A DNA stretch of 64,000 bases from Nocardiopsis listeri (GTDB lineage: Bacteria > Actinomycetota > Actinomycetes > Streptosporangiales > Streptosporangiaceae). Where the stretch lies: positions 78 through 64,077 of the forward strand of contig NZ_DYZD01000060.1 in assembly GCF_020741345.1 (NCBI RefSeq). The letters are read 5' to 3'. Both the position numbers and the translations under genes were made by a program. Below, piece by piece: positions 4,950 to 29,362 of the stretch (the stretch's first letter is position 1; every line of letters starts with the position of its first letter). The notes beneath the pieces were generated by a model. It was not told where the DNA came from and made no database searches. It was given only the letters and a program-made list of their open reading frames with translations.

Positions 4950-6392
4950 ATGACCCGACTCGACGACTCCGGAGCGCGTTCCGCAGAGCGCTCCGCAACG
5001 GATCGATCCTGGCTCGACCGCTTCTTCCTCGTCAGCGAACGGGGGTCGACCTTCGGTCAGGAGGTCCGCGGAGGACTGACGACGTTCATGGCGATGGCCT
5101 ACATCATCGTCCTGAACCCGCTCATCCTCAGCGGCGTCACCGACGTGAACGGTGACCAGCTCTCGGCCGGCCAGCTGACCACCATGACCGCCCTGGCAGC
5201 CGGGCTGGTCACCATCATGATGGGCGTGGTGGGCCGCGCCCCCATCGCCTGCGCCGCGGCCCTCGGCGTGATGGCGGTGGTCGCCTACCAGGCGGCGCCC
5301 GTGATGGCCTGGCCTGAGGTGATGGGCCTGGTCGTGTGGCAGGGCATCGCCATCATCCTCATGGTCCTCACCGGGGTGCGCACCGCGGTGATGAACGCGC
5401 TGCCGCACAACCTCAAGCTCGCCATCGGCGTGGGTATCGGCCTGTTCGTGTCCCTGATCGGTCTGGCCAACGTCGGCTTCGTCAGTGCCGGTGACGGCGA
5501 CAGCCTCCTGCAGATCGGCGCCGCGGGCGGCGGTGGATACCTGAACGGATGGCCGATCCTGGTGTTCGTGGCCGGTCTGATCCTGGCCTCGGTGCTGCTG
5601 GCCCGCCGGGTCCCCGGTGCGATCTTCTACGGGATCATCGGCGCCACCGTCCTCGCGGTGGTCCTGCACCACGTGCTGGGCCTGGACCCCGAGTCCTGGG
5701 GCGGCGGCGTGCCCGAAGCGCCCGCCGGCCCGTTCGCGGCGCCCGACTTCGGGTTGCTGTTCCAGGTGGACCTGTTCGGCGCCTGGAGCACGGCCGGGCC
5801 GACCACCGCCGGGGTCATCCTGTTCACCCTGGTGTTGGCCGGGTTCTTCGACGCCCTGGGCACCATCCTCGCCATCGGCACCAAGGCCAACATCGCCGAC
5901 GAGAACGGGCAGATGCCGCGGGTCAACCAGATCCTCATCACCGACGGCGCCGGCGCTGTGGCCGGTGGCCTGACCAGTTCCTCGGCGACGTTGGTGTTCG
6001 TGGAGTCCACCGTGGGGGTGAGCGAGGGGGCGCGCACCGGTCTGGCCAGCATCGTCACCGGGCTGTTCTTCCTCAGCGCGATCTTCTTCGCCCCGGTCTT
6101 CGGCATGGTGCCGGCCGAGGCGGCCTCGGTGGCGATGGTGCTGGTGGGCGCCATGATGATGATGCACGTGGGGCAGATCGCCTGGAACGACTTCTCGGTG
6201 GCCATCCCCGCGTTCCTGACGATCGTGATGATGCCGTTCGCCTACGACATCGCCAGCGGGATCGGGATCGGGATCATCGCGTACACGGTGATCAAGTCCG
6301 GTCAGGGTCGCTTCCGCGAGGTCGGTTGGCTGATGTGGATCCTGACCGCGGTGTTCTCCTTCCACTTCGCCATGCACGCGATGGGCCTGTAG
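4950..6392 (+). CDS. NCS2/AzgA-family purine permease
   Basis: EVRGGLTTFMAMAYIIVLNP, FFDALGT, ESTVGVSEGARTGL motifs; many hydrophobic segments; RBS GGAGGGG. Confidence 0.92.
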   Translation: MTRLDDSGARSAERSATDRSWLDRFFLVSERGSTFGQEVRGGLTTFMAMAYIIVLNPLILSGVTDVNGDQLSAGQLTTMTALAAGLVTIMMGVVGRAPIACAAALGVMAVVAYQAAPVMAWPEVMGLVVWQGIAIILMVLTGVRTAVMNALPHNLKLAIGVGIGLFVSLIGLANVGFVSAGDGDSLLQIGAAGGGGYLNGWPILVFVAGLILASVLLARRVPGAIFYGIIGATVLAVVLHHVLGLDPESWGGGVPEAPAGPFAAPDFGLLFQVDLFGAWSTAGPTTAGVILFTLVLAGFFDALGTILAIGTKANIADENGQMPRVNQILITDGAGAVAGGLTSSSATLVFVESTVGVSEGARTGLASIVTGLFFLSAIFFAPVFGMVPAEAASVAMVLVGAMMMMHVGQIAWNDFSVAIPAFLTIVMMPFAYDIASGIGIGIIAYTVIKSGQGRFREVGWLMWILTAVFSFHFAMHAMGL

Positions 6393-6407
6393 GGAGCTCC
6401 GCTCGTC

Positions 6408-17096: not shown

Positions 17097-18671
17097 TCAT
17101 GAAGGTTCCTGTGCATCACAAGGACGGCGGGTGAGGGCGAACCACAGACGCATGCGCTGTTCGGGATCGGCCAGGTCCACGCCCAGGTCCCGTTCGATCC
17201 GCCCGATCCGGTAGCGGACGCTGTTGCGGTGCACGCCGAGGTCGGTGGCGGCCCGATCCCAGTTACCGTGCCTGGCCAGCCAGGTGTGCAGGGTCGCGCG
17301 AAGGGTGTGCGCGGCCGAGGTTGCCTCGTCCAACGGGCCGAGGATGTCCCGGGCGCCCCGGCCGGCGCCGCCGGGGTCGATGAGCGCGTCGAAGGGGTCG
17401 GTGGCCGGCGACCACAGCCGTGGTTCGTCCACGGCGCGGGCGCGCACCAACAGAGCGGCGGCCCGGCGATCGGCGGCGGGCAGGTCGTCGGGCGTGGTGG
17501 CCTCGCTCAGGGCGCCGATCCACCCATGGGAGCGCAGGAGCTCGAGGTGGTCGTGATGGGCCTGTTCCCCCCGGTCGGCGAGGACCGCGCGCACGACACC
17601 GCCGCCTTCCTCGGAGCCGGGGGCCAGATCGCTCAGGTGGGTGCCCAAGGGCAGGGCCGCGGCGGCGGTGCGGTGCCCTCGGGAGGCGGGCACCGCCCGC
17701 AGGACCCGGTATCCGTCCTCGCGGGCGCCGCCCGGGGTTGCGGCGCGAGGCTCGGGGGTGCGGGTGTCGGTGAGTTCGGTCAGGGCCGCGATGGCGCGGG
17801 GGTTCAGTTCACCGTCCAACAGCAGCGCGGTGAGCGGCAGGCCGGGAGCGGGCGGCTCCTCGCCCTCGGCGCGCAGCAGCAGATCGAGCAGGGCTGTGGC
17901 GGTGCGCAACACCTCCCTGTCGGTGATGCCCAGGGGTTCGGGGCGGCCCACCAGGACCACGCCCTGATGTTCGGGCGGGGTGCCCACGGTGTGCAGGAAG
18001 ACCTCGTCGGGACCGCTGTCGGCCTTGGCGCTGCGCGGCCCCGTGGGGGAGGTGAGTTTGGTGATCAGGGTGCGCAGTTCGGGATCGAGGTCGGTCGGCG
18101 CCCCCACGGTGCGCCGCACTCGCGCGTCGGGGTCGGCGGGGACGAGGGCGACCCAGGCTCCGAGTGCGTCGGCCAGCACCGCGGGCAGCCGTTCGACTGG
18201 GGTGGGCGCGGTGACGGCGCGGGCCAGGGCCTGGTGGGACTCGCCCAGACGACGCAGGTCGCGCAGGTGGCGCTCCTCCAGTTCCTCCCCCACGGCGCGG
18301 CTGACCGCGGCGAAGGGAGAGTTCTGCGGCACCTCCAACAGCGCAAGACCCTGCAGCCGACACTGTTCGACGAGGTCGGCGGGGACGGTCTGGTGTACGG
18401 GCGCCACTCCGAAGCCGAGGGCCCCGACCCCCGCGCGCACCAGTGAGGCCACGTAGGTGCGCACCTCCTGGGTGTCGGTGGGCAGGTTGGCCCCGGAGGT
18501 GAGGAGGAGTTCTCCGCCACGCAGGTAGTCGGCGGCCACGACGAGTTCGCTCGCCACCGCCCAGGTGATCGGCGGGTCACCGACCTCGACCACCGTGGTC
18601 AGGCCCAGATCGCGGCGGGCCACCACCACGCTCAAGGGCACGTGGTGGGCGTCGATCCCCTTCTTCGCCAT
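17097..18671 (-). CDS. PucR-family transcriptional regulator (524 aa)
   Basis: N-terminal WAVASEL...DYLRGGELLLTSG (PucR ligand domain); C-terminal WLARHGNWDRAATDLGVHRNSVRYRI HTH. Confidence 0.9.
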   Translation of the reverse strand: MAKKGIDAHHVPLSVVVARRDLGLTTVVEVGDPPITWAVASELVVAADYLRGGELLLTSGANLPTDTQEVRTYVASLVRAGVGALGFGVAPVHQTVPADLVEQCRLQGLALLEVPQNSPFAAVSRAVGEELEERHLRDLRRLGESHQALARAVTAPTPVERLPAVLADALGAWVALVPADPDARVRRTVGAPTDLDPELRTLITKLTSPTGPRSAKADSGPDEVFLHTVGTPPEHQGVVLVGRPEPLGITDREVLRTATALLDLLLRAEGEEPPAPGLPLTALLLDGELNPRAIAALTELTDTRTPEPRAATPGGAREDGYRVLRAVPASRGHRTAAAALPLGTHLSDLAPGSEEGGGVVRAVLADRGEQAHHDHLELLRSHGWIGALSEATTPDDLPAADRRAAALLVRARAVDEPRLWSPATDPFDALIDPGGAGRGARDILGPLDEATSAAHTLRATLHTWLARHGNWDRAATDLGVHRNSVRYRIGRIERDLGVDLADPEQRMRLWFALTRRPCDAQEPS

Positions 18672-18758
18672 GTTCCTCGTCCCCCTCGTTCCCCGGCCCG
18701 TCCGAGCCGATCCCCGTGTCCTGGACATGACGTACACGAGGACGCCTTCCGATCCGAC

Positions 18759-18773
18759 TGGACGATTCATCCA
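18759..18773. promoter_or_regulatory. Near-palindrome in PucR/symporter divergent region (candidate PucR site)
   Basis: TGGACGA-T-TCATCCA, one mismatch. Confidence 0.4.
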
Positions 18774-18925
18774 AAGTCAACCGAGGAGTGGTGCGGTTCG
18801 GCCACTGGAGTGGAGCCTACCGACTACCTACGCTGACCGAAGCGATGTGACCTGCGTCAACATCCCCATGGCCCGACCCTGCGCACCACCCCTGCCCCCC
18901 GAACCACTCCCCGCAAAGGAGCTTC

Positions 18926-20440
18926 ATGCTCATCGACACCGCGGTGATCGCCGCCTACCTCCTGGGCATGGTCGGCCTGGGCTGGTGGGGCATGCGCCGC
19001 GCCAAGAGCAAGTCCGACTACCTGGTCGCCGGCCGCCGCCTGGGCCCGCTGATGTACGCGGGCACCATGGCCGCCGTGGTCCTGGGCGGCGCCTCCACCG
19101 TCGGCGGGATCGGCCTTGGCTACACCTACGGGATCTCCGGAGCCTGGCTGGTCGTGGCCATCGGTGTCGGCATCCTGGCCCTGCACCTGTTCTTCGCCGA
19201 GCGCATCTCGCGGCTGAGGGTCTTCACCGTCTCCGAGATGCTGGACCTGCGCTACGGCGGGGACTCCCGAATCGTGTCGGCCCTGGTCATGTGGGGTTAC
19301 ACCTTCGTTCTGACGGTGCCCTCGACCCTGGCCTTCTCCACCATCTTCAGCGGTCTGTTCGAACTGCCGCGCGTGGTCGCGATCATCCTGGGCGGCTCCA
19401 TCGTGGTGCTGTACTCCACGATGGGCGGCATGTGGTCGGTGACGATGACCGACATGGCCCAGTTCGCGATCAAGACGATCGGGCTCCTGTTCATCCTGAC
19501 CCCGGTGGCGGTGTGGTCGGCCGGCGGTTTCTCCGGGATGCGCGAGTCGTTGGACCCCTCCTACTTCGACCCCACCGCCATCGGCGGGCAGACCGTACTC
19601 ACCTACTTCGTCATCTACTCGCTGGGCCTGCTCATCGGCCAGGACATCTGGCAGCGCGTCTTCACCGGCCGCGACGACAAGGTCGCCAAGGTGGGCGGCA
19701 TCGGCGCGGGCGTGTACTGCCTGATCTACGGCGTGTGCGGCGCGCTCATCGGCACGGCCGCCGCGGTGATGTTCCCGAACCTGGCCGACCCCGACCACTC
19801 CTTCACCCTCATGGTGGAGGCGACCCTGCCCACGGGTGTGGCCGGCCTGGTCCTGGCCGCCGCCCTGTCCGCGGTGATGTCCACCGCCAGCGGCGCCCTC
19901 ATCGCCTGCTCCACGGTGACCTCCACCGACCTGTGGCCGCGTGTGCGCGCCCTGTTCGGCGCGAAGAGGTCCGCGGAGGGCGACCAGGACGGTGACGAGG
20001 TGGCCGCCGGCCGGGTGTTCACGCTGCTCCTGGGGGTGGCGAGCATCTGCGTGGCGTTGGCCGTGGACAACGTGGTCGCCGCGCTCACGCTGGCCTACAA
20101 CATCCTGGTCGGCGGCCTGCTCGTCGCGATCCTCGGTGGCCTGGTATGGCGTCGGGGAACCCGCGTGGGCGCCCTGGCCTCGATGCTGGCCGGTTCCGTG
20201 GCCGTCATCGTGACCATGGCGATCACCGGACTGCTCGCCAACGAACCCATCTACGTGGGGCTGGGCACCGCGCTGGTGGTCTACGTGGCCGTCAGCCTGC
20301 TCACCCCGCCCACCGACCCCGCGGTACTGGAGCTGTGGCAGCGCCGTCTGCGCGGCCAGGACATCGGCTCCGAGACCGCGACGGAAACCGACGAGGACGC
20401 CACAAGCGTCGCGTCCACCGACCCGCCCCGGGACCGCTGA
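18926..20440 (+). CDS. Sodium:solute symporter family protein
   Basis: RBS AAGGAG; [41 protein letters not shown]; about 13 TM-like segments. Confidence 0.93.
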
Positions 20441-20477
20441 CACCCACCACGGAACCGACGACACAGGAATGGATCAA

Positions 20478-21437
20478 ATGAACGCACCGATCGGACCCAC
20501 CGACTCCAGCCTCGTACCGCGTTTCGCCGGCCCGGCGACCTTCGCCCGGCTGCCCCGCATCGACCAGGTGGAACGGGCCGACATCGCCGTGATCGGGGTG
20601 CCCTTCGACACCGGTGTCTCCTACCGTCCCGGGGCCCGTTTCGGCCCCTCGGCGATCCGTGAGGCCAGCCGGCTGCTGCGTCCCTACAACCCCGGCCTGG
20701 ACGTGTCCCCATTCGAGCGCCTCCAGGTGGTGGACGGTGGCGACATCGCGGTGAACCCGTACTCGGTCGGGGACGCCGTGGAGACCCTGGACCAGGGCGC
20801 CTCCGAGTTCGTGCGCGCCGGGACCCGCCTGGTGACCCTGGGCGGCGACCACACGATCGCGCTGCCCCTGCTCAGGTCCCTGTACCGCGTGCACGGCCCG
20901 ATCGCCATGCTGCACTTCGACGCCCACCTGGACACCTGGGACACCTACTTCGGTGAGCCCTACACGCACGGCACCCCGTTCCGACGCGCGGTGGAGGAGG
21001 GCATCCTCGACACCGAGGCGATCGCCCACGTGGGCACCCGTGGCCCCCTGTACGGCAAGCGCGACCTGGAGGACGACCGTCGCTTCGGGTTCGGCATCGT
21101 CACCGCCGCCGACGTGCTGCGCAAGGGCGTGGACGAGATCGCCGACGCGCTGCGTCAGCGCATCGGGAACCGGCCGCTGTACGTGTCGGTGGACATCGAC
21201 GTCCTGGACCCGGCGCACGCCCCGGGCACCGGCACCCCGGAGGCCGGCGGGATCACGAGCAGGGAGCTGCTGGAGATCCTGCGCGGGTTGGCCGACCTGA
21301 ACCTGGTGGGCGCCGACGTGGTGGAGGTCGCCCCGGCCTACGACCACGCCCAGATCACCTCCACCGCTGCCTCGCACGTGGCCTACGACCTGGTGAGCCT
21401 GCTGGCCCTGAACCACCAGCGCAAGACGGAGGCCTGA
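20478..21437 (+). CDS. speB: Agmatinase/guanidinobutyrase-type ureohydrolase
   Basis: [48 protein letters not shown] Mn-binding motifs. Start 20478 fits the RBS; alternative 20469. Substrate not determinable from sequence. Confidence 0.9.
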
Positions 21438-21441
21438 TCAC

Positions 21442-23082
21442 ATGGGTGGGAGCGCGCCGCGCAACGGTGGCGACCTGGTCACCGAGACCCTGACCGCGTT
21501 GGGGTCCCGGGTGTGCTTCGGCATCCCCGGCCAGCACGCGCTGGGGCTGTTCGACGCGCTGCGTCGAGCCCCCGGGCTGCGGTTCGTGTCGGCCAGGGTG
21601 GAGAACAACGCGGCCTTCGCCGCGGACGGGCACGCCCGGGCCACCGGTGAGGTCACCCCGTTGTTGGTCTCCACCGGGCCCGGCGCGCTGCTCACCCTGG
21701 CCTCGTTGCAGGAGTCCCGGGCGGCCTCGGCTCCGGTGCTGGTGATCAGCGGCCAGGTGCCGCGGGCGGGGCTGGGCGGTGGCCGCCACGGCTACCTGCA
21801 CGAGCTGCCCGAACAGGCGGCCTCCTTCGACAACGTCACCAAGTCGACGTTCACGGTCCGGCACGCCTCGCAGATTCCCTCGGCGCTGGTCGAGGCCTGG
21901 CGGACCGCCGCCCGGGCGCCCGCCGGCCCGGTGCTGGTGGAGATCCCGCAGGACGTGCTGCTGGAACCGACCGTCGTGCCTCCGGTGAGGGACGTGTCCG
22001 CTGCACCGACCCCGCTGGTTCCGCGCGCGGAGGTGGTGGACGAGGCGGTCCGCCTGTTGGACGGGGCGCGACGTCCGGTGGTGCTGGCCGGTGGCGGCGT
22101 GAGCCGTGCGGGCGGCCGGAAGGCGCTGCTGGAGCTGGCCGAGGCCCTTCGGGCACCGGTGGCCACCACCTTCGGCGGCAAGGACGCCTTCCCTTGGGAC
22201 CATCCGCTCTCGCTGCGGTCGTGGATCGAGGACCGGTACACCACCGCGTATCTGGAGGAGGCCGACGTGCTCCTGGTGGTGGGTTCGGGGCTGGGCGAGT
22301 TGTCCAGTAACTACCACACCATGGCGCCGCGAGGACGGGTGGTGCAGGTGGAGGCCGACCTCGGCAAGCTGGAGTCCAACGTTGCGGCGCTGGGGATCCA
22401 CGGCGACGCGGCCACGACCCTGGCGGCACTGGCCGCGAAGGTGCGGCCCCGCGTGAAGGATCCGGAGGTCGAGGCCGAGGTCGCCCGGGTTCTGGCCAGT
22501 GTGGCCGAACGGCTGGCCGGGCAGGATCTGGCCGCCGAACAGACCGTTCTGGCGGCGGTGCGCGCGGCACTCCCCGATGACGCTCCGAGCTTTTGGGACA
22601 TGACCGTGTTGGCGTACTGGGCGTGGTCGGCGTGGGACCCGCGCGAGGGCGCGATGCACTCGGCGCAGGGCTCCGGTGGACTCGGCTACGGGTTCCCCGC
22701 CGCGCTGGGCGCCGCCTCGACCGGAAGGGGTCCGGTGCTGGCGGTCTCCGGTGACGGCGGCGCCATGTACTCGATCGCGGAGCTGGCCACCGCGCGCCAG
22801 CACGACCTGGACGTGACGTGGTTGATCGTCGACGACGGCGGCTACGGGATCCTGCGCGAGTACATGGAGGGCGCCTTCGGGGAGGCCACCCACACGGAGC
22901 TGACCCGACCCGACTTCGTGGCCCTGGCCGCCTCGTTCGGGGTGCCCGCGACCCTCACCTCACCGGAGACGGTGAAGGTCGATCTGGCCGCCGCGCTGGC
23001 CGTCCCGGGACCGAGCGTGGTGGTGCTTCCCATGCACGTGAACATGTTCGCCCCCACCCACCTGGACGACCCCATGCCCTGA
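21442..23082 (+). CDS. Thiamine-diphosphate-dependent enzyme (acetolactate synthase-like/AruI-like decarboxylase)
   Basis: FGIPGQH, ARVENNAAFAADG (catalytic Glu), STGPG, GLGYGFPAALGA, SGDGGAMY. Confidence 0.88.
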   Translation: MGGSAPRNGGDLVTETLTALGSRVCFGIPGQHALGLFDALRRAPGLRFVSARVENNAAFAADGHARATGEVTPLLVSTGPGALLTLASLQESRAASAPVLVISGQVPRAGLGGGRHGYLHELPEQAASFDNVTKSTFTVRHASQIPSALVEAWRTAARAPAGPVLVEIPQDVLLEPTVVPPVRDVSAAPTPLVPRAEVVDEAVRLLDGARRPVVLAGGGVSRAGGRKALLELAEALRAPVATTFGGKDAFPWDHPLSLRSWIEDRYTTAYLEEADVLLVVGSGLGELSSNYHTMAPRGRVVQVEADLGKLESNVAALGIHGDAATTLAALAAKVRPRVKDPEVEAEVARVLASVAERLAGQDLAAEQTVLAAVRAALPDDAPSFWDMTVLAYWAWSAWDPREGAMHSAQGSGGLGYGFPAALGAASTGRGPVLAVSGDGGAMYSIAELATARQHDLDVTWLIVDDGGYGILREYMEGAFGEATHTELTRPDFVALAASFGVPATLTSPETVKVDLAAALAVPGPSVVVLPMHVNMFAPTHLDDPMP

Positions 23083-23100
23083 CCAGGACCCGGGTCAGGT

Positions 23101-23258
23101 CCCGAACATCCGCCGTCCGCACCGGACGGTCGACCCGCCCTCGGGGCACGCGTCAACGGCGCCGCGTGCCCCGAGGACACCCGAACATCCGAGTCCCCGA
23201 TGGGACACCGGTGTTCCGTTCCCGAGACGGCACGCGTCGACGACGCCGCGCGCCCGTC
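23101..23258 (+). repeat. Tandem duplicated structured element (two ~78-nt units)
   Basis: CCCGAACATCCG at 23101 and 23180; small GTCC..GGAC hairpins at 23113-23129 and 23193-23206; 27-nt core GGCACGCGTCRACGRCGCCGCGYGCCC at 23145-23171 and 23229-23255. Confidence 0.75.
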
Positions 23259-23319
23259 CCTGCTCGTTGAATCCCCGCTCCTTTCATCCCTCAGCAGTGC
23301 AGCCCTCAGGAGTACAGCC

Positions 23320-24825
23320 GTGTCCCAGTCCCGACCCGCCCCCGTGACGGTGGTGGAGACCCACGGGGTCGCACCGATCCCGGTCTCCGACCAGTCCTCA
23401 CGCCCCTTCGACCTGTTCCGTCTCACCTTCGGCGGCGCCAACACCTTCGCCACGATCATCCTGGGCACCCTGCCCATCGCCTACGGTCTGGGGTTCGCCG
23501 CGGCGGCCGCCGCCACCGTGGTCGGTGTGGTGCTCGGGGCGCTCATCCTCTCCCCCATGGCACTGTTCGGTCCCCGGACGCGCACCAACAACGCCGTCTC
23601 CTCCGGAGCGCACTTCGGCGTGGTGGGGCGTGCCCTGGGCTCCCTGCTGTCGTTGCTCACCGCCGTCACGTTCTTCTCGATCTCGGTGTGGGTGAGCGGT
23701 GACGCCATCGTCGGCGCCGCGCACCGGCTGGGGTTGCCCGGCGGCGACGCGCTGCGCGCGGTCTCCTACGGTGTGATCGCCGTGGCGGTGTTCGTGGTGT
23801 GCGTGTACGGCTACCAGTTCATGTTGCTCATCAACAAGATCGCCGTGGTGGCCGGCAGCGCCCTGATGTTGCTGGGCTTCGTGGCCTATGGGGGCGCGTT
23901 CGACCCCTCCTTCGCCGGCAGCGGCGACCACATCCTGGGCGGATTCTGGCCCACCTGGGTGCTGGCCGTGCTGACGGTGATGGCCAACCCGGTCTCCTTC
24001 GGCGGGTTCCTGGGCGACTGGTCGCGTTACATCCCGGCCACGACCTCCACCCGCCGACAGTTGGTGGCCCCGTTCATGGCCCAGCTGTGCACCCTGCTGC
24101 CGTTCGGGTTCGGGCTGTTCACCGCCACCCTGGTCGCCGACCCCGACCGCTACGTGTCCGGGCTGGCCGCCGTCTCCCCCTTCTGGTACGCGCTTCCGCT
24201 GCTGTTGGTGGCGCTGGTGGGGGGACTGTCCACCGGCACCACGGCGCTGTACGGCACCGGGCTGGACTTCTCCTCGCTGGTCCCTCGCCTGAACCGGGTA
24301 CAGGGCACCGTCGTGGTGGGTTTCCTGGCCCTGGCGCTGGTGTTCGTGGGCACGTTCCTGTTCGACTTCGTCGAAACGATCAACGCCTTCGCGATCCTCA
24401 TCGTCCTGCTCACCTCCCCCTGGATGGTGATCATGATGCTGGGCTACGTGTTCCGGCGCGGCCACTACCTGGTCGAGGACCTACAGGTGTTCAACGAGGG
24501 ACGCCGGGGCGGCAGGTACTGGTTCCGCTCGGGCGTCAACTGGCGCGCGATGACCGCGTGGCTGCTGTCCGCTCTGGCCGCCCTGCTGTTCGCCAACACC
24601 CCGCTGTTGGTCGGCCCGTTGGGGAACCTGGCCGCCGGCATCGACATCAGCCTTCCGGTGGCGCTGGCGACCGCCGCGATCGTCTACCCCACGGCGCTGT
24701 TCCTCTTCCCCGAACCGCGCTCGGTGTTCGGCCCCAAGGGCCCGCGCCTGGTGCCGGCACGCGAGGACAGCGAACCGGCCCCCGCAGCCACCACCGAGGA
24801 CGCGCCGACCATCGCGGCGCACTGA
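23320..24825 (+). CDS. NCS1/purine-cytosine permease family protein (501 aa)
   Basis: GTG start after CAGGAG; VETHGVAPIP, FGGANTF, GAHFGVVGR, DWSRYIP, LYGTGLD motifs. Confidence 0.88.
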   Translation: MSQSRPAPVTVVETHGVAPIPVSDQSSRPFDLFRLTFGGANTFATIILGTLPIAYGLGFAAAAAATVVGVVLGALILSPMALFGPRTRTNNAVSSGAHFGVVGRALGSLLSLLTAVTFFSISVWVSGDAIVGAAHRLGLPGGDALRAVSYGVIAVAVFVVCVYGYQFMLLINKIAVVAGSALMLLGFVAYGGAFDPSFAGSGDHILGGFWPTWVLAVLTVMANPVSFGGFLGDWSRYIPATTSTRRQLVAPFMAQLCTLLPFGFGLFTATLVADPDRYVSGLAAVSPFWYALPLLLVALVGGLSTGTTALYGTGLDFSSLVPRLNRVQGTVVVGFLALALVFVGTFLFDFVETINAFAILIVLLTSPWMVIMMLGYVFRRGHYLVEDLQVFNEGRRGGRYWFRSGVNWRAMTAWLLSALAALLFANTPLLVGPLGNLAAGIDISLPVALATAAIVYPTALFLFPEPRSVFGPKGPRLVPAREDSEPAPAATTEDAPTIAAH

Positions 24826-24856
24826 GACCACCCACGACTTCGATCGAAGGACCACC

Positions 24857-26290
24857 ATGAGCAGCCACGATCCCCTGTACAGCCTGGTCGACGGTGAGCC
24901 CCTGCACCCCAGGGGCGGGGCGACCCTGGACCTGGTCGACCCCGTCACCGGACAGGTGACCGGCCGGGCCGGGGTCTGCGGCCCCGCCGAGGTGGAGTCC
25001 GCCATGGACTCCGCGGCCCGCGCCTTCCGGTCCTGGCGCCGAGCCACACCCGCGCAGCGCCAGGACGCCCTGCTGGCGATCGCCGACGCCCTGGTCGAAC
25101 ACGCCGAGGAGTTCGCCGACGCCGAGTGCCGCGAGACCGGCAAGCCGCGCGCGTCGTTCCTGGACGAGGAGATCCCGTTCTGCGTGGACACCCTGCGATT
25201 CTTCGCCGGGTCAGCCCGACACCTGGAGGGCAAGGCCGCGGCCGAGTACGCCACCGATCGCACCTCCTGGATCCGCCGCGAACCGGTGGGCGTGTGCGTG
25301 GGCATCACTCCGTGGAACTACCCGCTGATGATGGCGGTGTGGAAGATCGGCCCGGCGCTGGCCGCGGGCAACACGGTGGTGCTCAAGCCCGCCGAGTCCA
25401 CCCCGAGCACCACGGTCCTGCTCGCCGAGATCGCCGCACGGGCGCTCCCCGCCGGTGTGGTCAACGCGGTGGTGGGCGACCGTGACACCGGCCGCCTGTT
25501 GGTGGAGCACCCGGCCACGCGCCTGGTGTCGGTCACCGGTTCGACCAGGGCGGGGGCACAGGTGGCCAAGGCGGCCGCCGACGACATCAAGCGCGTGCAC
25601 CTGGAGCTCGGCGGCAACGCCCCGGCGGTGGTCTTCGACGACGCCGACGTGGCCGGCGCCGCGGCCGGTGTGGTCGCGGGCGGTTTCCTCAACGCCGGAC
25701 AGGACTGCACCGCCGCCACCCGGGTCATCGTCCAGGAGGGGGTGCACGACGAGTTCGTCGCCGAGCTGACCCGTCTGGCGTCGGCGCAGGTCACCGGCCT
25801 GCCCTCGGACCAGGAGAGCGACTTCGGGCCGCTCAACAACGCCGACCAGTTCGCCCGGGTCACCGGGCTCTTGGAACGCCTGCCCGCGCACGCCAGGGTG
25901 GAGACGGGCGGACATCGGGTGGGCGAGGCCGGGTTCTTCCTCGCGCCCACCGTGGTCTCCGCTCTGCGCGCCGATGACGAGATCGTGCTGGAGGAGGTGT
26001 TCGGCCCGGTGGTGACCGTGCAGCGCTTCGCGGACGAGAGCGAGGCGGTCGAACTGGCCAACGGGGTCGAGCAGGGACTCGCCTCGTCGGTGTGGACCCG
26101 TGACCACGCGCGGGCGATGCGGGTCTGCGCCGAGCTGGACTTCGGCGCGGTGTGGCTCAACACCCACGGCGACCTGCTCTCGGAGATGCCGCACGGGGGC
26201 TTCAAGCGGTCCGGGTACGGCAAGGACCTGTCGGCCTACAGCCTGGAGGACTACACCCGCGTCAAGCACGTGATGAGCGCCCTGGACTGA
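24857..26290 (+). CDS. Aldehyde dehydrogenase (aminobutyraldehyde/guanidinobutyraldehyde dehydrogenase-like)
   Basis: ITPWNYP, VLKPAE, TGSTRAG, LELGGNAP, NAGQDCTA (catalytic Cys), EEVFGPV, HGGFKRSGYG. Confidence 0.92.
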   Translation: MSSHDPLYSLVDGEPLHPRGGATLDLVDPVTGQVTGRAGVCGPAEVESAMDSAARAFRSWRRATPAQRQDALLAIADALVEHAEEFADAECRETGKPRASFLDEEIPFCVDTLRFFAGSARHLEGKAAAEYATDRTSWIRREPVGVCVGITPWNYPLMMAVWKIGPALAAGNTVVLKPAESTPSTTVLLAEIAARALPAGVVNAVVGDRDTGRLLVEHPATRLVSVTGSTRAGAQVAKAAADDIKRVHLELGGNAPAVVFDDADVAGAAAGVVAGGFLNAGQDCTAATRVIVQEGVHDEFVAELTRLASAQVTGLPSDQESDFGPLNNADQFARVTGLLERLPAHARVETGGHRVGEAGFFLAPTVVSALRADDEIVLEEVFGPVVTVQRFADESEAVELANGVEQGLASSVWTRDHARAMRVCAELDFGAVWLNTHGDLLSEMPHGGFKRSGYGKDLSAYSLEDYTRVKHVMSALD

Positions 26291-26336
26291 CGCCGTTCGT
26301 GGACCGCCGCGCGCGGACCCGCCCAGGGGCCTTCCT

Positions 26337-26957
26337 CTAGACCCTGGCGGGTCCGCGTGTGCGCAGGTGGGACCAGGTGAGCTCGGCGACGTGTCCGGCC
26401 ATCGTGTCGGGGGTCTCGTCCGGGTGGTCCAGGAGCCAGTCCGCGAAGGCGTCGGCGGTGCTCACCGCCACCCGGGCCAACAGTTGGGCGTCGCGGACGT
26501 CCATGTCGCCGTAGTCGTCGCGGGTGCAGGCGGTGATGAGATCGGCCATCTCCGCGGTGACACGGTCGCGCATACGGGCGGTCTCGGCCTCGAAGGGCCG
26601 CCCCTGCGCGGCGGCGCGCCGGTAGAGCACGGTCCAGCTCTCGCGGTTGTCGACCACGAACGCGAAGAAGGCGCGCATGCCACGGCGCAGCGGGTCGTCG
26701 TCGATGGGACTGGGTGCGTGCACGGCGCTACGGATGGCCTCGATGAGGCGTTCCATCTCCCGGCGCACGCAGGCGGTGAAAATACCCTCCTTGGAACCCA
26801 GGTAGTGGTACGCGGTGGGTTTGGAGGTCCCGGCGGCCGTCGCGATCTCCTCCACGCTGACGGTGTGGTAGTCGCCCCGGGAGAACGCGGAAACGGCGGC
26901 GTCGATCAGCTGTTGTTCCCTGACCCCGCGCGGGAGCCTGCGTTGTTTGGTCTTCAC
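26337..26957 (-). CDS. TetR/AcrR-family regulator
   Basis: RREQQLIDAAV-like N-terminal helix, SVEEIATAAGTSKPTAYHYLGSKEG HTH. Start estimated at GTG 26957. Confidence 0.85.
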   Translation of the reverse strand: MKTKQRRLPRGVREQQLIDAAVSAFSRGDYHTVSVEEIATAAGTSKPTAYHYLGSKEGIFTACVRREMERLIEAIRSAVHAPSPIDDDPLRRGMRAFFAFVVDNRESWTVLYRRAAAQGRPFEAETARMRDRVTAEMADLITACTRDDYGDMDVRDAQLLARVAVSTADAFADWLLDHPDETPDTMAGHVAELTWSHLRTRGPARV

Positions 26958-27168
26958 GTGAACCGACCCTAACGGGATCGGTGGAGGTGGCCAGGGGAGA
27001 CCGTGGGCGTGGCGGGCCGCCCGAGCCGGGACCGGTCGGCCTCGCGCGTGTGACCTGTGGGGCCGCGGCCGCATTGAATCCCGGGGGTGGCGCATCCCAC
27101 ATTCCGAGACGTTCGAGTGGGCGGATTCCGCACGGACGTGCGCGGAACCCGCCTCTTTCGTTCGGCCG

Positions 27169-28005
27169 TCAGGAAGGGGAGTCGCGCAGTTCCAGGGTGC
27201 AGCACTTGGCGCCGCCCCCGGCCTTGCGGAGTTCGTCGAGTTCGATCGGATGGACCGTGTATCCCAGGGACCGGAGCCTCTCGGCGAGCGCGGTGGCCTC
27301 GGCGGCGATGACCACGTTGCGGCCGTCACCGACGGCGTTCAGGCCCAGGACGGCCGCGTCCTCCTCGGTGGCCAGGAGCGCGTCGGGGTACAGGGCGCGC
27401 AGCACCCGACGGCTGCCCTCGGAGAACGCGCCCGGGTAGTAGGCGATCCGCTGTCCCGACAGGGCGAACAGCGCGGTGTCCAGGTGGTAGAAGCGCGGGT
27501 CGACCAGTTGCAGGGTGACGACCGGGCGATCCAGGAGTCGTTCTGCCTCCTGGTGGGCGGCGGCCTCGGTGCGAAAACCCGTGGCGGCCAGGATGACGTC
27601 GTCCAGGGTGATGAAGTCGCCCTCACCCTCGTTGACGTGTTTGGGTTCGTTGGTCTCGACGTAGCCGGCCTTGCGGAACCAGTCGAGGTAGGCGGGCCCT
27701 TCGGGGGTGCGTTCGGCGCTGGCGAACCGGGCCCCGTAGACCCGACCGTCCACGACCAGGCCACCGTTGGCGGCGAAGACCATGTCGGGCAGGCCTTCGA
27801 TGGGGGCTATCTCGCTCACGCGGTGCCCCAGGGACAGGTAGAGGTCGCGGAGCCCTTCCCACTGCCGAACGGCGCGGTCGCGGTCCACGCCCAAGGCGGG
27901 ATTCATCCAGGGGTTGATCGCGTATTCCACCGCGAAGTAGGTGGGACGGCACATCAAATAGTGCCGGGGCGCCGCCACCGGCGCCGGGTCTGCGGGTCGA
28001 GCCAT
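27169..28005 (-). CDS. ddaH: Dimethylargininase (DDAH)/amidinotransferase superfamily
   Basis: HYLMCRP..F.VEYAINPWM, LPDMVFAAN, EGEGD, FYHLDT, GGGAKCCTLE (catalytic Cys). Confidence 0.88.
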   Translation of the reverse strand: MARPADPAPVAAPRHYLMCRPTYFAVEYAINPWMNPALGVDRDRAVRQWEGLRDLYLSLGHRVSEIAPIEGLPDMVFAANGGLVVDGRVYGARFASAERTPEGPAYLDWFRKAGYVETNEPKHVNEGEGDFITLDDVILAATGFRTEAAAHQEAERLLDRPVVTLQLVDPRFYHLDTALFALSGQRIAYYPGAFSEGSRRVLRALYPDALLATEEDAAVLGLNAVGDGRNVVIAAEATALAERLRSLGYTVHPIELDELRKAGGGAKCCTLELRDSPS

Positions 28006-28044
28006 GGAACCTCCCCATCGAGGTGCCCCGGAGGCCGAACGGCC

Positions 28045-28077
28045 CGCGGTGGTTCAGGCCTTTACCACCGCGTTTTT
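28045..28077 (+). terminator. Intrinsic-terminator-like hairpin inside the DDAH/ADH divergent region
   Basis: 9-bp stem CGCGGTGGT/ACCACCGCG followed by TTTTT. Confidence 0.45.
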
Positions 28078-28267
28078 CCGGGCGGACATTCGTTGGATAC
28101 CCATACCGGGAGGGCGTCAATATCGACCTTTCCGCGAACGACTCGAAAACGGAAGGTTCCAACGCGCCCCGCCCCTCGCGATCCCGTTCGAGGACGCCCC
28201 CGACCAACAGACCGACCGGCCGGTATTGTTAGGGTCGCGCCAGTTCCCTGATTGGAGTACCCCCATC

Positions 28268-29362
28268 ATGAGCACGACCGTCAAGGCAGCCGTCTTCCAC
28301 GAGACCGGTGCACCCCCGAAGATCCGTTCCCTGGTCCTGCCCACCCCCGGCCCCGGGCAGGTACTGGTACGCCTGGCGGCGGCGGGTGTGTGTCACTCCG
28401 ACCTGTCCCTGTCCAACGGCACCCTGGCCCAGTCCTGGCCCGCCGTCCTGGGCCACGAGGGCGCCGGCACCGTCGAGGAGGTCGGCCCCGAAGTCGAACA
28501 TCTGACGCCCGGCCAACAGGTCGTCCTGAACTGGGCGCCCGCCTGTCGAGAGTGCTGGTTCTGCCTCCAGGGGGAGCCCTACCTGTGCGAACACGCCCTG
28601 GACGGCACCCTGACCCCCTACGCCGAACTGACCGACGGCACCCCCGTCTACGCCGGCTTGAGCACGGGCGCCTTCGCCGAGGCCACCGTCGTCTCGGCCA
28701 AGGCCGTGATCCCGCTGCCCGATGGGATCGACCCGGCGGTCGGGGCCGTGCTGGGATGTGCGGTGGTCACCGGATGGGGCGCCGTCAACAACGCCGCCCG
28801 ACTGCGCGAGGGGCAGTCCGCGGTGGTCCTGGGCTTGGGCGGGGTCGGTCTGTCCGTGCTCCAGGCGGCCCGGGTGGCCGGGGCCGGCCCTCTGATCGCG
28901 GTGGACGTCTCCCCCGACAAGGAGGAGTTGGCCCGCTCTTTGGGCGCCACCGACTTCCTGGTCGCCGACGGAAGCACCCACAAGGCCGTGCGGGGGCTGA
29001 CCGGCGGGCGCGGCGCCGACCACGCCTTCGAGGTGGTGGGCAAGGCCCAGGTGGTGCGCACGGCCTGGAACAGTGTGCGCCGGGGCGGAACCGTGACCGT
29101 GGTGGGCCTCGGCTCGGCCAAGGACGAGGTGTCCTTCAACGCCCTGGAACTGTTCCACCAGGGCCGTACCGTGCAGGGATGCGTGTACGGCTCCAGCGAC
29201 CCGGACCGGGACATCCCGCTGCTGGCCGAATCGGTGCGCTCCGGCGATCTGCGCCTGTCGGCGATGGTCACCGACGAGATCCCCCTGGAGGGTGTTCCCG
29301 AGGCCTTCGAACGCATGGGTCAGGGCAGGGGCGGGCGGTCACTGGTGCGGTTCGGGGCTTGA
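28268..29362 (+). CDS. Zinc-dependent alcohol dehydrogenase (class III-like, 364 aa)
   Basis: GVCHSD, GHEG, CRECWFC...C structural Zn site, GCAVVTG, GLGGVG. Confidence 0.92.
   Translation: MSTTVKAAVFHETGAPPKIRSLVLPTPGPGQVLVRLAAAGVCHSDLSLSNGTLAQSWPAVLGHEGAGTVEEVGPEVEHLTPGQQVVLNWAPACRECWFCLQGEPYLCEHALDGTLTPYAELTDGTPVYAGLSTGAFAEATVVSAKAVIPLPDGIDPAVGAVLGCAVVTGWGAVNNAARLREGQSAVVLGLGGVGLSVLQAARVAGAGPLIAVDVSPDKEELARSLGATDFLVADGSTHKAVRGLTGGRGADHAFEVVGKAQVVRTAWNSVRRGGTVTVVGLGSAKDEVSFNALELFHQGRTVQGCVYGSSDPDRDIPLLAESVRSGDLRLSAMVTDEIPLEGVPEAFERMGQGRGGRSLVRFGA

Follow-up and report, generated by a model that had tools for sequence, protein, structure and literature searches.

Guanidine-II riboswitches bind guanidinium, and the ACGR tetraloops of their two hairpins kiss upon ligand binding. 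In these riboswitches, the G-C pair that closes the loop engages the ligand through a cation-pi contact and stacking and is strictly conserved without covariation (PMC10351892). The RNA targets of ANTAR-domain regulators are dual stem-loops with a linker of 2 to 25 nt, and their hexanucleotide loops carry A at position 1 and G at position 4 (PMC8164766). NCS1-like importers, in turn, go together with ureohydrolase clusters for guanidino substrates (PMC11271267). Here, we describe a hairpin element in the leader of an NCS1-family permease gene of Nocardiopsis, within a 64,000-nt stretch of DNA that was analyzed as a whole (the window). A first-pass annotation of the window had singled the element out as a candidate guanidine-II-like or new riboswitch and had named a duplicated intergenic repeat as its fallback. 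We find that the element is a lineage-specific member of the broad class of leader stem-loops and is not in Rfam.

RESULTS

Organization of the permease leader

The permease gene belongs to a cluster that encodes a PucR-type regulator, an SSF symporter, an arginase-family enzyme, a ThDP enzyme, the NCS1 permease and an aldehyde dehydrogenase, a gene content that fits the catabolism of a guanidino acid. The product of the ThDP enzyme gene, which lies directly upstream of the permease gene, is probably a 2-oxo-acid decarboxylase in the guanidino-acid route. A Pfam scan of the nine ORFs at 17097-29362 revealed DNA-binding regulators of the PucR and TetR types and one ORF without a match, and no gene for an RNA-binding regulator was evident among them. 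Between the ThDP enzyme and permease genes lie two units of ~79 nt (about 80 nt), each arranged in the order 12-mer, small hairpin, GC-rich hairpin. The features of the locus are as follows.

21442..23082, + strand: upstream gene, ThDP-dependent enzyme with three TPP_enzyme domains (Pfam, ORF list)
23083..23319, + strand: leader of the NCS1 permease gene, intergenic, 237 nt, housing both repeat units
23101..23112, + strand: first copy of the 12-mer CCCGAACATCCG, which opens unit 1 and is not conserved in the nearest relatives
23113..23129, + strand: small hairpin of unit 1, CCGTCCG-CAC-CGGACGG, kept only in the closest clade (G028, G072, G007)
23139..23176, + strand: hairpin 1, with a perfect 14-bp stem, a 1x1 U.C mismatch, a C-G pair and the hexaloop AACGGC (23155-23160)
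23180..23191, + strand: second copy of the 12-mer CCCGAACATCCG, which opens unit 2
23193..23206, + strand: small hairpin of unit 2, GTCCC-CGAT-GGGAC, of other sequence and at the equal position in its unit
23226..23258, + strand: hairpin 2, with an imperfect stem (A.C and U.C mismatches) and the apex G-ACGA-C (loop 23240-23243)
23308..23312, + strand: Shine-Dalgarno sequence of the permease gene, AGGAG, ~50 nt 3' of hairpin 2 and kept in orthologues
23320..24825, + strand: NCS1-family permease gene with a GTG start (Pfam; orthologue alignments begin at residues 2-5)

The 12-mers, small hairpins and 27-nt cores described in the first-pass annotation were all recovered at their positions. The two cores (23145-23171 and 23229-23255) are 89% identical, hairpins 1 and 2 are separated by 52 nt that contain another hairpin, and the sequences that trail the hairpins are CCCGAGGACACCC and CGUCCCUGCUCG. 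Hairpin 1 retains the ancestral apex, which can also be read as an A.C mismatch closing ACGG (23156-23159), while in hairpin 2, ACGA is closed by a G-C pair and a C-G pair, followed by the U.C mismatch; the apices and mismatches are thus as previously described. The prefix UUCCGUUCC identifies hairpin 2 as the positional orthologue of the single hairpin of another Nocardiopsis-group genome (G018), and its apex, GACGAC, is common to G028 and G072.

The distance of 62 nt between hairpin 2 and the permease start, also given in the first-pass annotation, was borne out by orthologue alignments, which concur with the GTG at 23320 preceded by AGGAG. Read from an in-frame ATG at 23200, the permease ORF would measure 541 aa and hairpin 2 would fall inside the coding sequence. 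We rejected this ATG because the extension is not conserved in relatives and took GTG 23320, preceded by the Shine-Dalgarno sequence, as the start. Automated gene calling could place the start at the ATG in error.

Two further observations concern the wider locus. The end of the leader (23235-23319) is C-rich and G-poor, with 38 C and 21 G (~2-fold), and the last 85 nt before the NCS1 start show the same bias in 16 of the 16 orthologues examined, hairpin-less ones included (L037-L050, L075-L077); in the adjoining coding DNA, C and G are about equal. This tract resembles a Rho-utilization (rut) tract, with a recurring CAUCCCC-like word, and the SSF symporter leader is also C-rich. In the divergent PucR/SSF-symporter promoter region, positions 18854-18867 read GCGTCAACATCCCC, in which GCGTCAAC (the hairpin core's 5' half) occurs together with AACATCC, a word of the 12-mer at the head of each unit; this likeness may be due to chance.

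Distribution of the hairpin among Nocardiopsis and relatives

We located the orthologous permease loci in 51 Nocardiopsis species genomes and a family-level sample, read their upstream regions, and used two covariance models of the element (R1 and R2). The core hairpin lies just 5' of the orthologous permease gene in about 17 species, which belong to Nocardiopsis and two or three sister genera. In the 51 Nocardiopsis genomes, every strong model match was located upstream of an NCS1 orthologue or its remnant, and the element was found only at this locus within the genus. The suggestion of a genuine, structured element that accompanies the NCS1 permease in a guanidino cluster was upheld. The element is under selection and exceeds chance, as the same place is occupied in some 17 species by a hairpin with a covarying stem. 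Its common form is one hairpin with the core CGCG-Y-C-R-ACG-N-C-G-N-CGCG and an outer stem that is variable yet complementary. The distance from the hairpin to the permease start ranges from 45 to 160 nt across species, the spacers are not conserved, and the gene upstream is either the ThDP enzyme gene or an arginase-family gene. In the sister genera represented by G420 and G483, the hairpin is present with covarying stems, and in the sister genus of G243, as well as in two metagenome contigs, the stem is kept with the apex AGUGCC; other metagenome orthologues added no further forms.

Tandem hairpins occur only in the window genome and in G028 (two each) and in G072 (three), while about 12 other species have a single one. 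The permease of the window is 95% identical to those of its nearest relatives, N. sp. JB363 and N. listeri. As most species have a single hairpin and two or three are seen only in one clade, the tandem arrangement is a recent duplication. The duplicated-repeat fallback of the first-pass annotation was hence right about the duplication and wrong about its substance, because the duplicated unit is a conserved functional hairpin.

No hairpin is present in the orthologous leaders of G013, G036, G066, G462 and N. endophytica. It is also missing in Amycolatopsis, Saccharomonospora, Sciscionella and others, whose permeases are 55 to 73% identical and directly follow the neighboring gene; judged from translated 3' ends, this neighbor in Amycolatopsis-type loci is apparently an aldehyde dehydrogenase or arginase-family gene. 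As at least four Nocardiopsis-group leaders and every Amycolatopsis-type orthologue lack it, the hairpin is dispensable.

A class-level sample of 400 genomes yielded nothing credible outside the genus, the one match being weak (38 bits; L074). In the family-level sample of 400 genomes, we found two real leaders (G420 and G483) and one probable copy (G653), and the remaining matches were false positives in coding regions, such as one encoding ERVNGAALGE in a possible hydantoinase-type ORF (a name based solely on its translated peptide). Among relatives of G483, the sole addition was a terminator-like hairpin downstream of pckG in another genus (L208), whose 12-nt apex is identical. The G653 copy (L192; G653:C1:3053586-3053625), in another genus of the family, is a hairpin with the G483-type core CGCGCCAACGGCGUCGCG and a C.U mismatch, ~100 nt after a class I/II aminotransferase gene; no permease gene lies within 600 nt, and the hairpin may be the relic of a rearranged cluster.

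In three genomes, the hairpin persists beside a truncated, interrupted or decayed permease gene (G007, L066; G008, L057; G022, L067), with a fusion to the 3' part of the permease gene in G007 and unrelated sequence past ~10 codons in G008. In N. listeri (G028; L039 / L105), an in-frame TGA is found about nine codons past the conserved permease GTG (…CCCGCCTGAGTGACGGTG), and the 3' end of the ThDP enzyme gene is broken by a stop codon and a ~40-nt insert that is also present in G007. These disruptions in G028 could represent incipient decay of the locus or sequence errors.

Copy number and motif specificity

A whole-genome DNA search (BLAST-type) of the 5.5-Mb draft assembly (477 contigs) returned only the locus itself and the internal self-match of the palindrome. 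No second intergenic copy was detected in a genome-wide hairpin scan anchored on the apex C-R-ACGR-C-G, whose three other long-stem matches were a palindrome at a putative TetR-type gene, a terminator-like hairpin and a coding-region match. The check for dispersed copies thus came out in favor of a single-copy element, and we rejected a REP-like repeat, as the DNA, covariance-model and apex-anchored scans agreed on one locus per genome.

The 12-nt apex GTCRACGRCGCC has 25 near-matches within the window and is common in high-GC DNA because it matches favored codons. The covariance models likewise match coding regions in other genera, where GAG CGC GTC AAC GGC GCC GCG CTC encodes ERVNGAAL. These near-matches and coding-region look-alikes indicate that the information content of the motif is modest in high-GC DNA and that the model E-values are optimistic.

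The palindrome found by the apex scan lies on contig C100 (+ strand, ~6360-6405), where GGTGCACTCAGTG-CAACGACG-CACTGAGTGCACC forms a perfect 13-bp palindrome immediately at the start of a gene in divergent orientation that, from its position and sequence, resembles a TetR-type regulator. It is probably the operator of this putative TetR-type gene, and we regard the C-A-ACGA-C-G center that it shares with the hairpin as a coincidence.

Conservation and covariation of the hairpin

Stem statistics were computed for 19 aligned copies with a model of a 17-bp stem and a tetraloop. In this alignment, 78.6% of the cells are paired and 12 of the 17 pairs change on both sides. The covariation score was 0.345, compared with 0.125 in shuffles; none of 500 shuffles reached 0.345, and every slid register scored lower. 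The ACGR motif stressed in the first-pass annotation is kept in orthologues (ACG in 19 of 19 aligned copies; fourth base G in 15, A in 3 and C in 1), the exception being the AGUGCC apex of G243 and the two metagenome contigs. The closing position is A.C in 14 of the 19 copies, with G-C restricted to hairpin 2, its two orthologues, G015 and G020, and the second pair under the loop is C-G, not G-C. In an apex-anchored ungapped profile of 12 species, pairwise identity was 0.97 at the apex, 0.6 in the mid-stem and ~0.30, the random level, in the flanks, which cannot be aligned. This pattern indicates sequence-specific constraint on the apex and structural constraint on the lower stem. The stems, of 13 to 17 bp, have folding energies of -17 to -37 kcal/mol, which argues for a constitutive rather than a switchable structure.

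Several pairings involving the loop were considered and rejected. Pairing of the loop sequence ACGGC with GCCGU at the GUG start holds in Nocardiopsis and fails in G420, G483 and G014, and we took it to be a coincidence. CCGUU, 5' of hairpin 2, could pair with the hairpin 1 loop in the closest clade only and is sterically impossible in the single-hairpin G018. Reading of the loop CGN as an arginine codon by a tRNA in a T-box-like manner, suggested by the occurrence of CGG, CGA and CGC, found neither a T-box match nor a conserved downstream platform. A conserved alternative fold that would mask the Shine-Dalgarno sequence was likewise not found, the downstream structures varying between species.

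The strand indicators (15 G.U against 11 A.C; mean dG difference, -0.4 kcal/mol) leave room for a double-stranded DNA operator of a transcription factor, for example, the PucR- or TetR-type regulator of the cluster, in which the extended palindrome would be incidental. Such an operator would benefit from these wobble statistics, which do not tell the strands apart, from the dyad arms of the core (CGCGTC-N6-GCCGCG), from the comparable long palindrome with the center CAACGACG at the start of the putative TetR-type gene elsewhere in the genome, and from the GCGTCAAC sequence shared with the PucR-SSF promoter region. However, it is the asymmetric center that is most conserved, and the outer arms vary yet stay complementary; a conserved center with covarying arms is the signature of a folded strand and not of the half-sites of a dimeric operator. 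The site also lies within an operon, 45 to 160 nt 5' of the start codon, and shows no promoter-like pattern. We therefore consider an operator to be very unlikely.

Comparison with guanidine-II riboswitches

We found no match to the guanidine-II model (mini-ykkC; RF01068) in the region, the genome or any orthologous leader, contrary to one of the identities suggested in the first-pass annotation. At E ≤ 10, none was present in 22900-23500, and at E ≤ 0.001, none was present in the whole genome or in the NCS1-leader loci of the 51 Nocardiopsis genomes. Rfam searches of the region (E ≤ 10), the window (gathering score) and three control loci revealed no guanidine-I, -II, -III or -IV riboswitch, T-box or other family at the locus. 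The gathering threshold of RF01068 is 32 bits, and the positive control, from another Nocardiopsis species (G009), scored 39.6 bits. That sequence (L098; G009:C15:149678-149722, minus strand) is a canonical guanidine-II riboswitch, with GGGACGACCC and GGGACGGCCC hairpins (GGGACGRCCC) and a 14-nt linker.

The G009 riboswitch is situated ~25 nt 5' of a GTG-initiated gene for a polytopic membrane protein resembling a cation antiporter. Seven more species in the Nocardiopsis search had sub-threshold RF01068 matches of ~30 to 32 bits.

The element at the permease locus is not a guanidine-II riboswitch, as judged from four tested features. The guanidine-II reading did not survive the lack of an Rfam match, a closing pair that is mostly A.C, a tandem arrangement in only three species, long static stems and a distant Shine-Dalgarno sequence. 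We also weighed a guanidine-II-like switch limited to the tandem clade, in which the ACGG and ACGA loops would kiss via CG upon binding of guanidine or a guanidino ligand and alter permease expression. The two ACGR loops of the window genome, G028 and G072 would suit such a switch, as would the invariant ACG with a variable fourth position, as in guanidine-II, the G-C closing pair of unit 2 and the presence in a cluster that handles guanidino compounds, the company that NCS1-like importers are known to keep. Yet RF01068 finds no match here or in the orthologous leaders while reaching 39.6 bits in G009, the closing pair is A.C in hairpin 1 and in 14 of the 19 copies, and about 12 species have one hairpin with no partner ACGR loop nearby. 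Moreover, 52 nt and a hairpin lie between the stems, against ~14 nt in the RF01068 consensus, and the Shine-Dalgarno sequence is ~50 nt beyond hairpin 2. A kissing switch of this kind is accordingly very unlikely.

There is, finally, a slim chance that the duplicated ACGG hairpin, one copy of which gained a G-C closing pair, may kiss in a ligand-dependent manner and so constitute a nascent guanidine-II-like sensor of a guanidino importer. If this were true, a sensor would have been caught at birth, governing an importer of guanidino compounds rather than a guanidine exporter or carboxylase.

Possible passive and sequence-specific roles of the hairpin

The main rival to the explanation that we prefer is a passive hairpin, acting either as an intercistronic attenuator or leaky terminator or as a barrier to exonucleases (RNase J, PNPase). 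It would set the permease-to-enzyme ratio with neither ligand nor factor, and tandem copies would merely strengthen the effect. In its favor, the long GC-rich stem with a loop of 4 to 6 nt is like the terminator-type hairpins found after unrelated genes (L063, L064 and L068; L208 after pckG), the structure is very stable and sits in mid-operon, in the window genome just past a stop codon, and it is dispensable in several species. An intrinsic (Rho-independent) terminator is not apparent, however, as the hairpins have no U-tract and neither a terminator-pattern match nor a terminator-like site was found in 22700-23500. The position of the hairpin also speaks for a link to the permease. In G018, a mere ~45 nt lie between it and the start codon, too little for a downstream promoter, which means that transcription has to pass through the hairpin. 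In G014 and G020, the upstream stop codon is 250 to 300 nt away and the permease start 107 to 160 nt, indicating that the hairpin tracks the downstream gene. Above all, pure structure does not explain an apex identity of 0.97 amid flanks at the random level. Passive attenuation or stabilization thus accounts for the stem and not for the apex, and we judge it to be unlikely, although it deserves serious consideration.

Recognition of the apex raises the question of ANTAR-domain regulators, whose RNA-binding member would be encoded elsewhere in the genome and would use the hexaloop as its target. The loop AACGGC carries A1 and G4, and the AGUGCC variant of G243 and the two metagenome contigs keeps exactly these two bases. 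The genome contains three PF03861 genes (contigs C122, C102 and C276), and such systems often control nitrogen-source genes. Most species, on the other hand, have a lone hairpin, and the 52 nt between the tandem copies exceed the linker range of 2 to 25 nt; no consistent second hexaloop hairpin is seen in the leaders. Loop position 1 is G in unit 2 and in two species with a single hairpin, and the G1 loops GACGAC and GACGGC (5 of 19 copies) can close to a tetraloop. No ANTAR gene is located on the contig of the window, and we found no Nocardiopsis entry in the published actinobacterial ANTAR tables in text form. An ANTAR target is consequently a distinctly unlikely identity for this hairpin.

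DISCUSSION

We tentatively favor the view that a trans-acting factor recognizes the apical loop of this lineage-specific leader stem-loop by its sequence and thereby controls expression of the permease. Ancestrally, the leader holds one hairpin, in which the loop (A/G)ACG(G/A)C tops a C-G pair, in most cases a pyrimidine-pyrimidine mismatch, and a long GC-rich stem; in the window species and its two closest relatives, this hairpin has been duplicated to two or three tandem copies. The stem is much too stable for switching, and in the proposed mechanism the hairpin would serve as a static docking site. The proposed factor, for which an RNA-binding regulatory protein is the most plausible candidate, would read the apical loop and upper stem and, once bound, determine read-through, decay or translation of the permease mRNA. 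Additional hairpins would provide further binding sites.

Several observations lead us to this view, among them the single locus per genome, the linkage to the permease, the covarying stem and its constitutive stability. The conservation of the apex, at 0.97 against ~0.30 in the flanks, is a constraint that a terminator or stabilizer would not need, and it points to recognition by something. The spacing to the start codon varies from 45 to 160 nt, which favors an output that tolerates differences in distance (read-through, Rho access or decay and stability, for example) over direct masking of the Shine-Dalgarno sequence. We infer that the element acts as an RNA of the + strand, the strand being assumed from gene direction, and that a factor binds it and thereby affects expression. 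Several findings weigh against docking: no RNA-binding regulator is evident among the nine ORFs of the cluster, the strand indicators do not separate the strands, and the hairpin is dispensable. The modest information in the motif, its coding-region matches and the terminator-like pckG hairpin with an identical 12-nt apex count against docking as well.

If the hairpin is a regulatory docking site, it would represent an undescribed post-transcriptional control point for the uptake of guanidino compounds in Nocardiopsis. The motif involved is small, a 40-nt hairpin with an invariant ACG loop. A note of caution applies to annotation, in that a pair of ACGR-capped hairpins in a guanidine-related context is insufficient to call a guanidine-II riboswitch, and in high-GC genomes sequences of the ACGR-capped type also arise from codon usage. 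The change from one copy to two or three within a young clade shows a route by which tandem hairpin architectures originate.

Of the systems described, guanidine-II (RF01068) shares with this element ACGR caps with a self-complementary CG, an invariant ACG and a variable fourth base and, in the window genome, tandem hairpins before a transporter gene in a guanidino context. It differs in its stems, which are 5 to 8 bp long, whereas those described here are static and of 13 to 17 bp, in a linker of ~14 nt in the model consensus, compared with 52 structured nt, and in a G-C closing pair where ours is mostly A.C, with no covariance-model match. Furthermore, the ancestral and commonest state of our element is one hairpin, its Shine-Dalgarno sequence follows ~50 nt past hairpin 2 instead of lying at or next to P2 as in the translational expression platform of guanidine-II, and it is confined to one genus and its neighbors. 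ANTAR-target RNAs resemble those of its copies that have the loop AACGGC in presenting A1 and G4 within a hexaloop; they also resemble the element in their location, the leaders of transport or nitrogen genes of Actinobacteria, and in the recognition of a static loop by a protein, which for our element is a proposal. They differ in that our hairpin is mostly single, has much longer stems and in some cases G1, and has no linked ANTAR gene. REP and BIME palindromes are similarly imperfect, GC-rich, tandem and intergenic, but the present element occupies one locus per genome and forms no dispersed family. The intercistronic stabilizers, attenuators and U-tract-less terminator-like hairpins of actinobacteria are alike in their long GC-rich stems between operon genes and their variable copy number. 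In contrast to these, the element described here has an apex that is 0.97 identical across genera, and it is tied to the downstream gene and not to the upstream stop codon.
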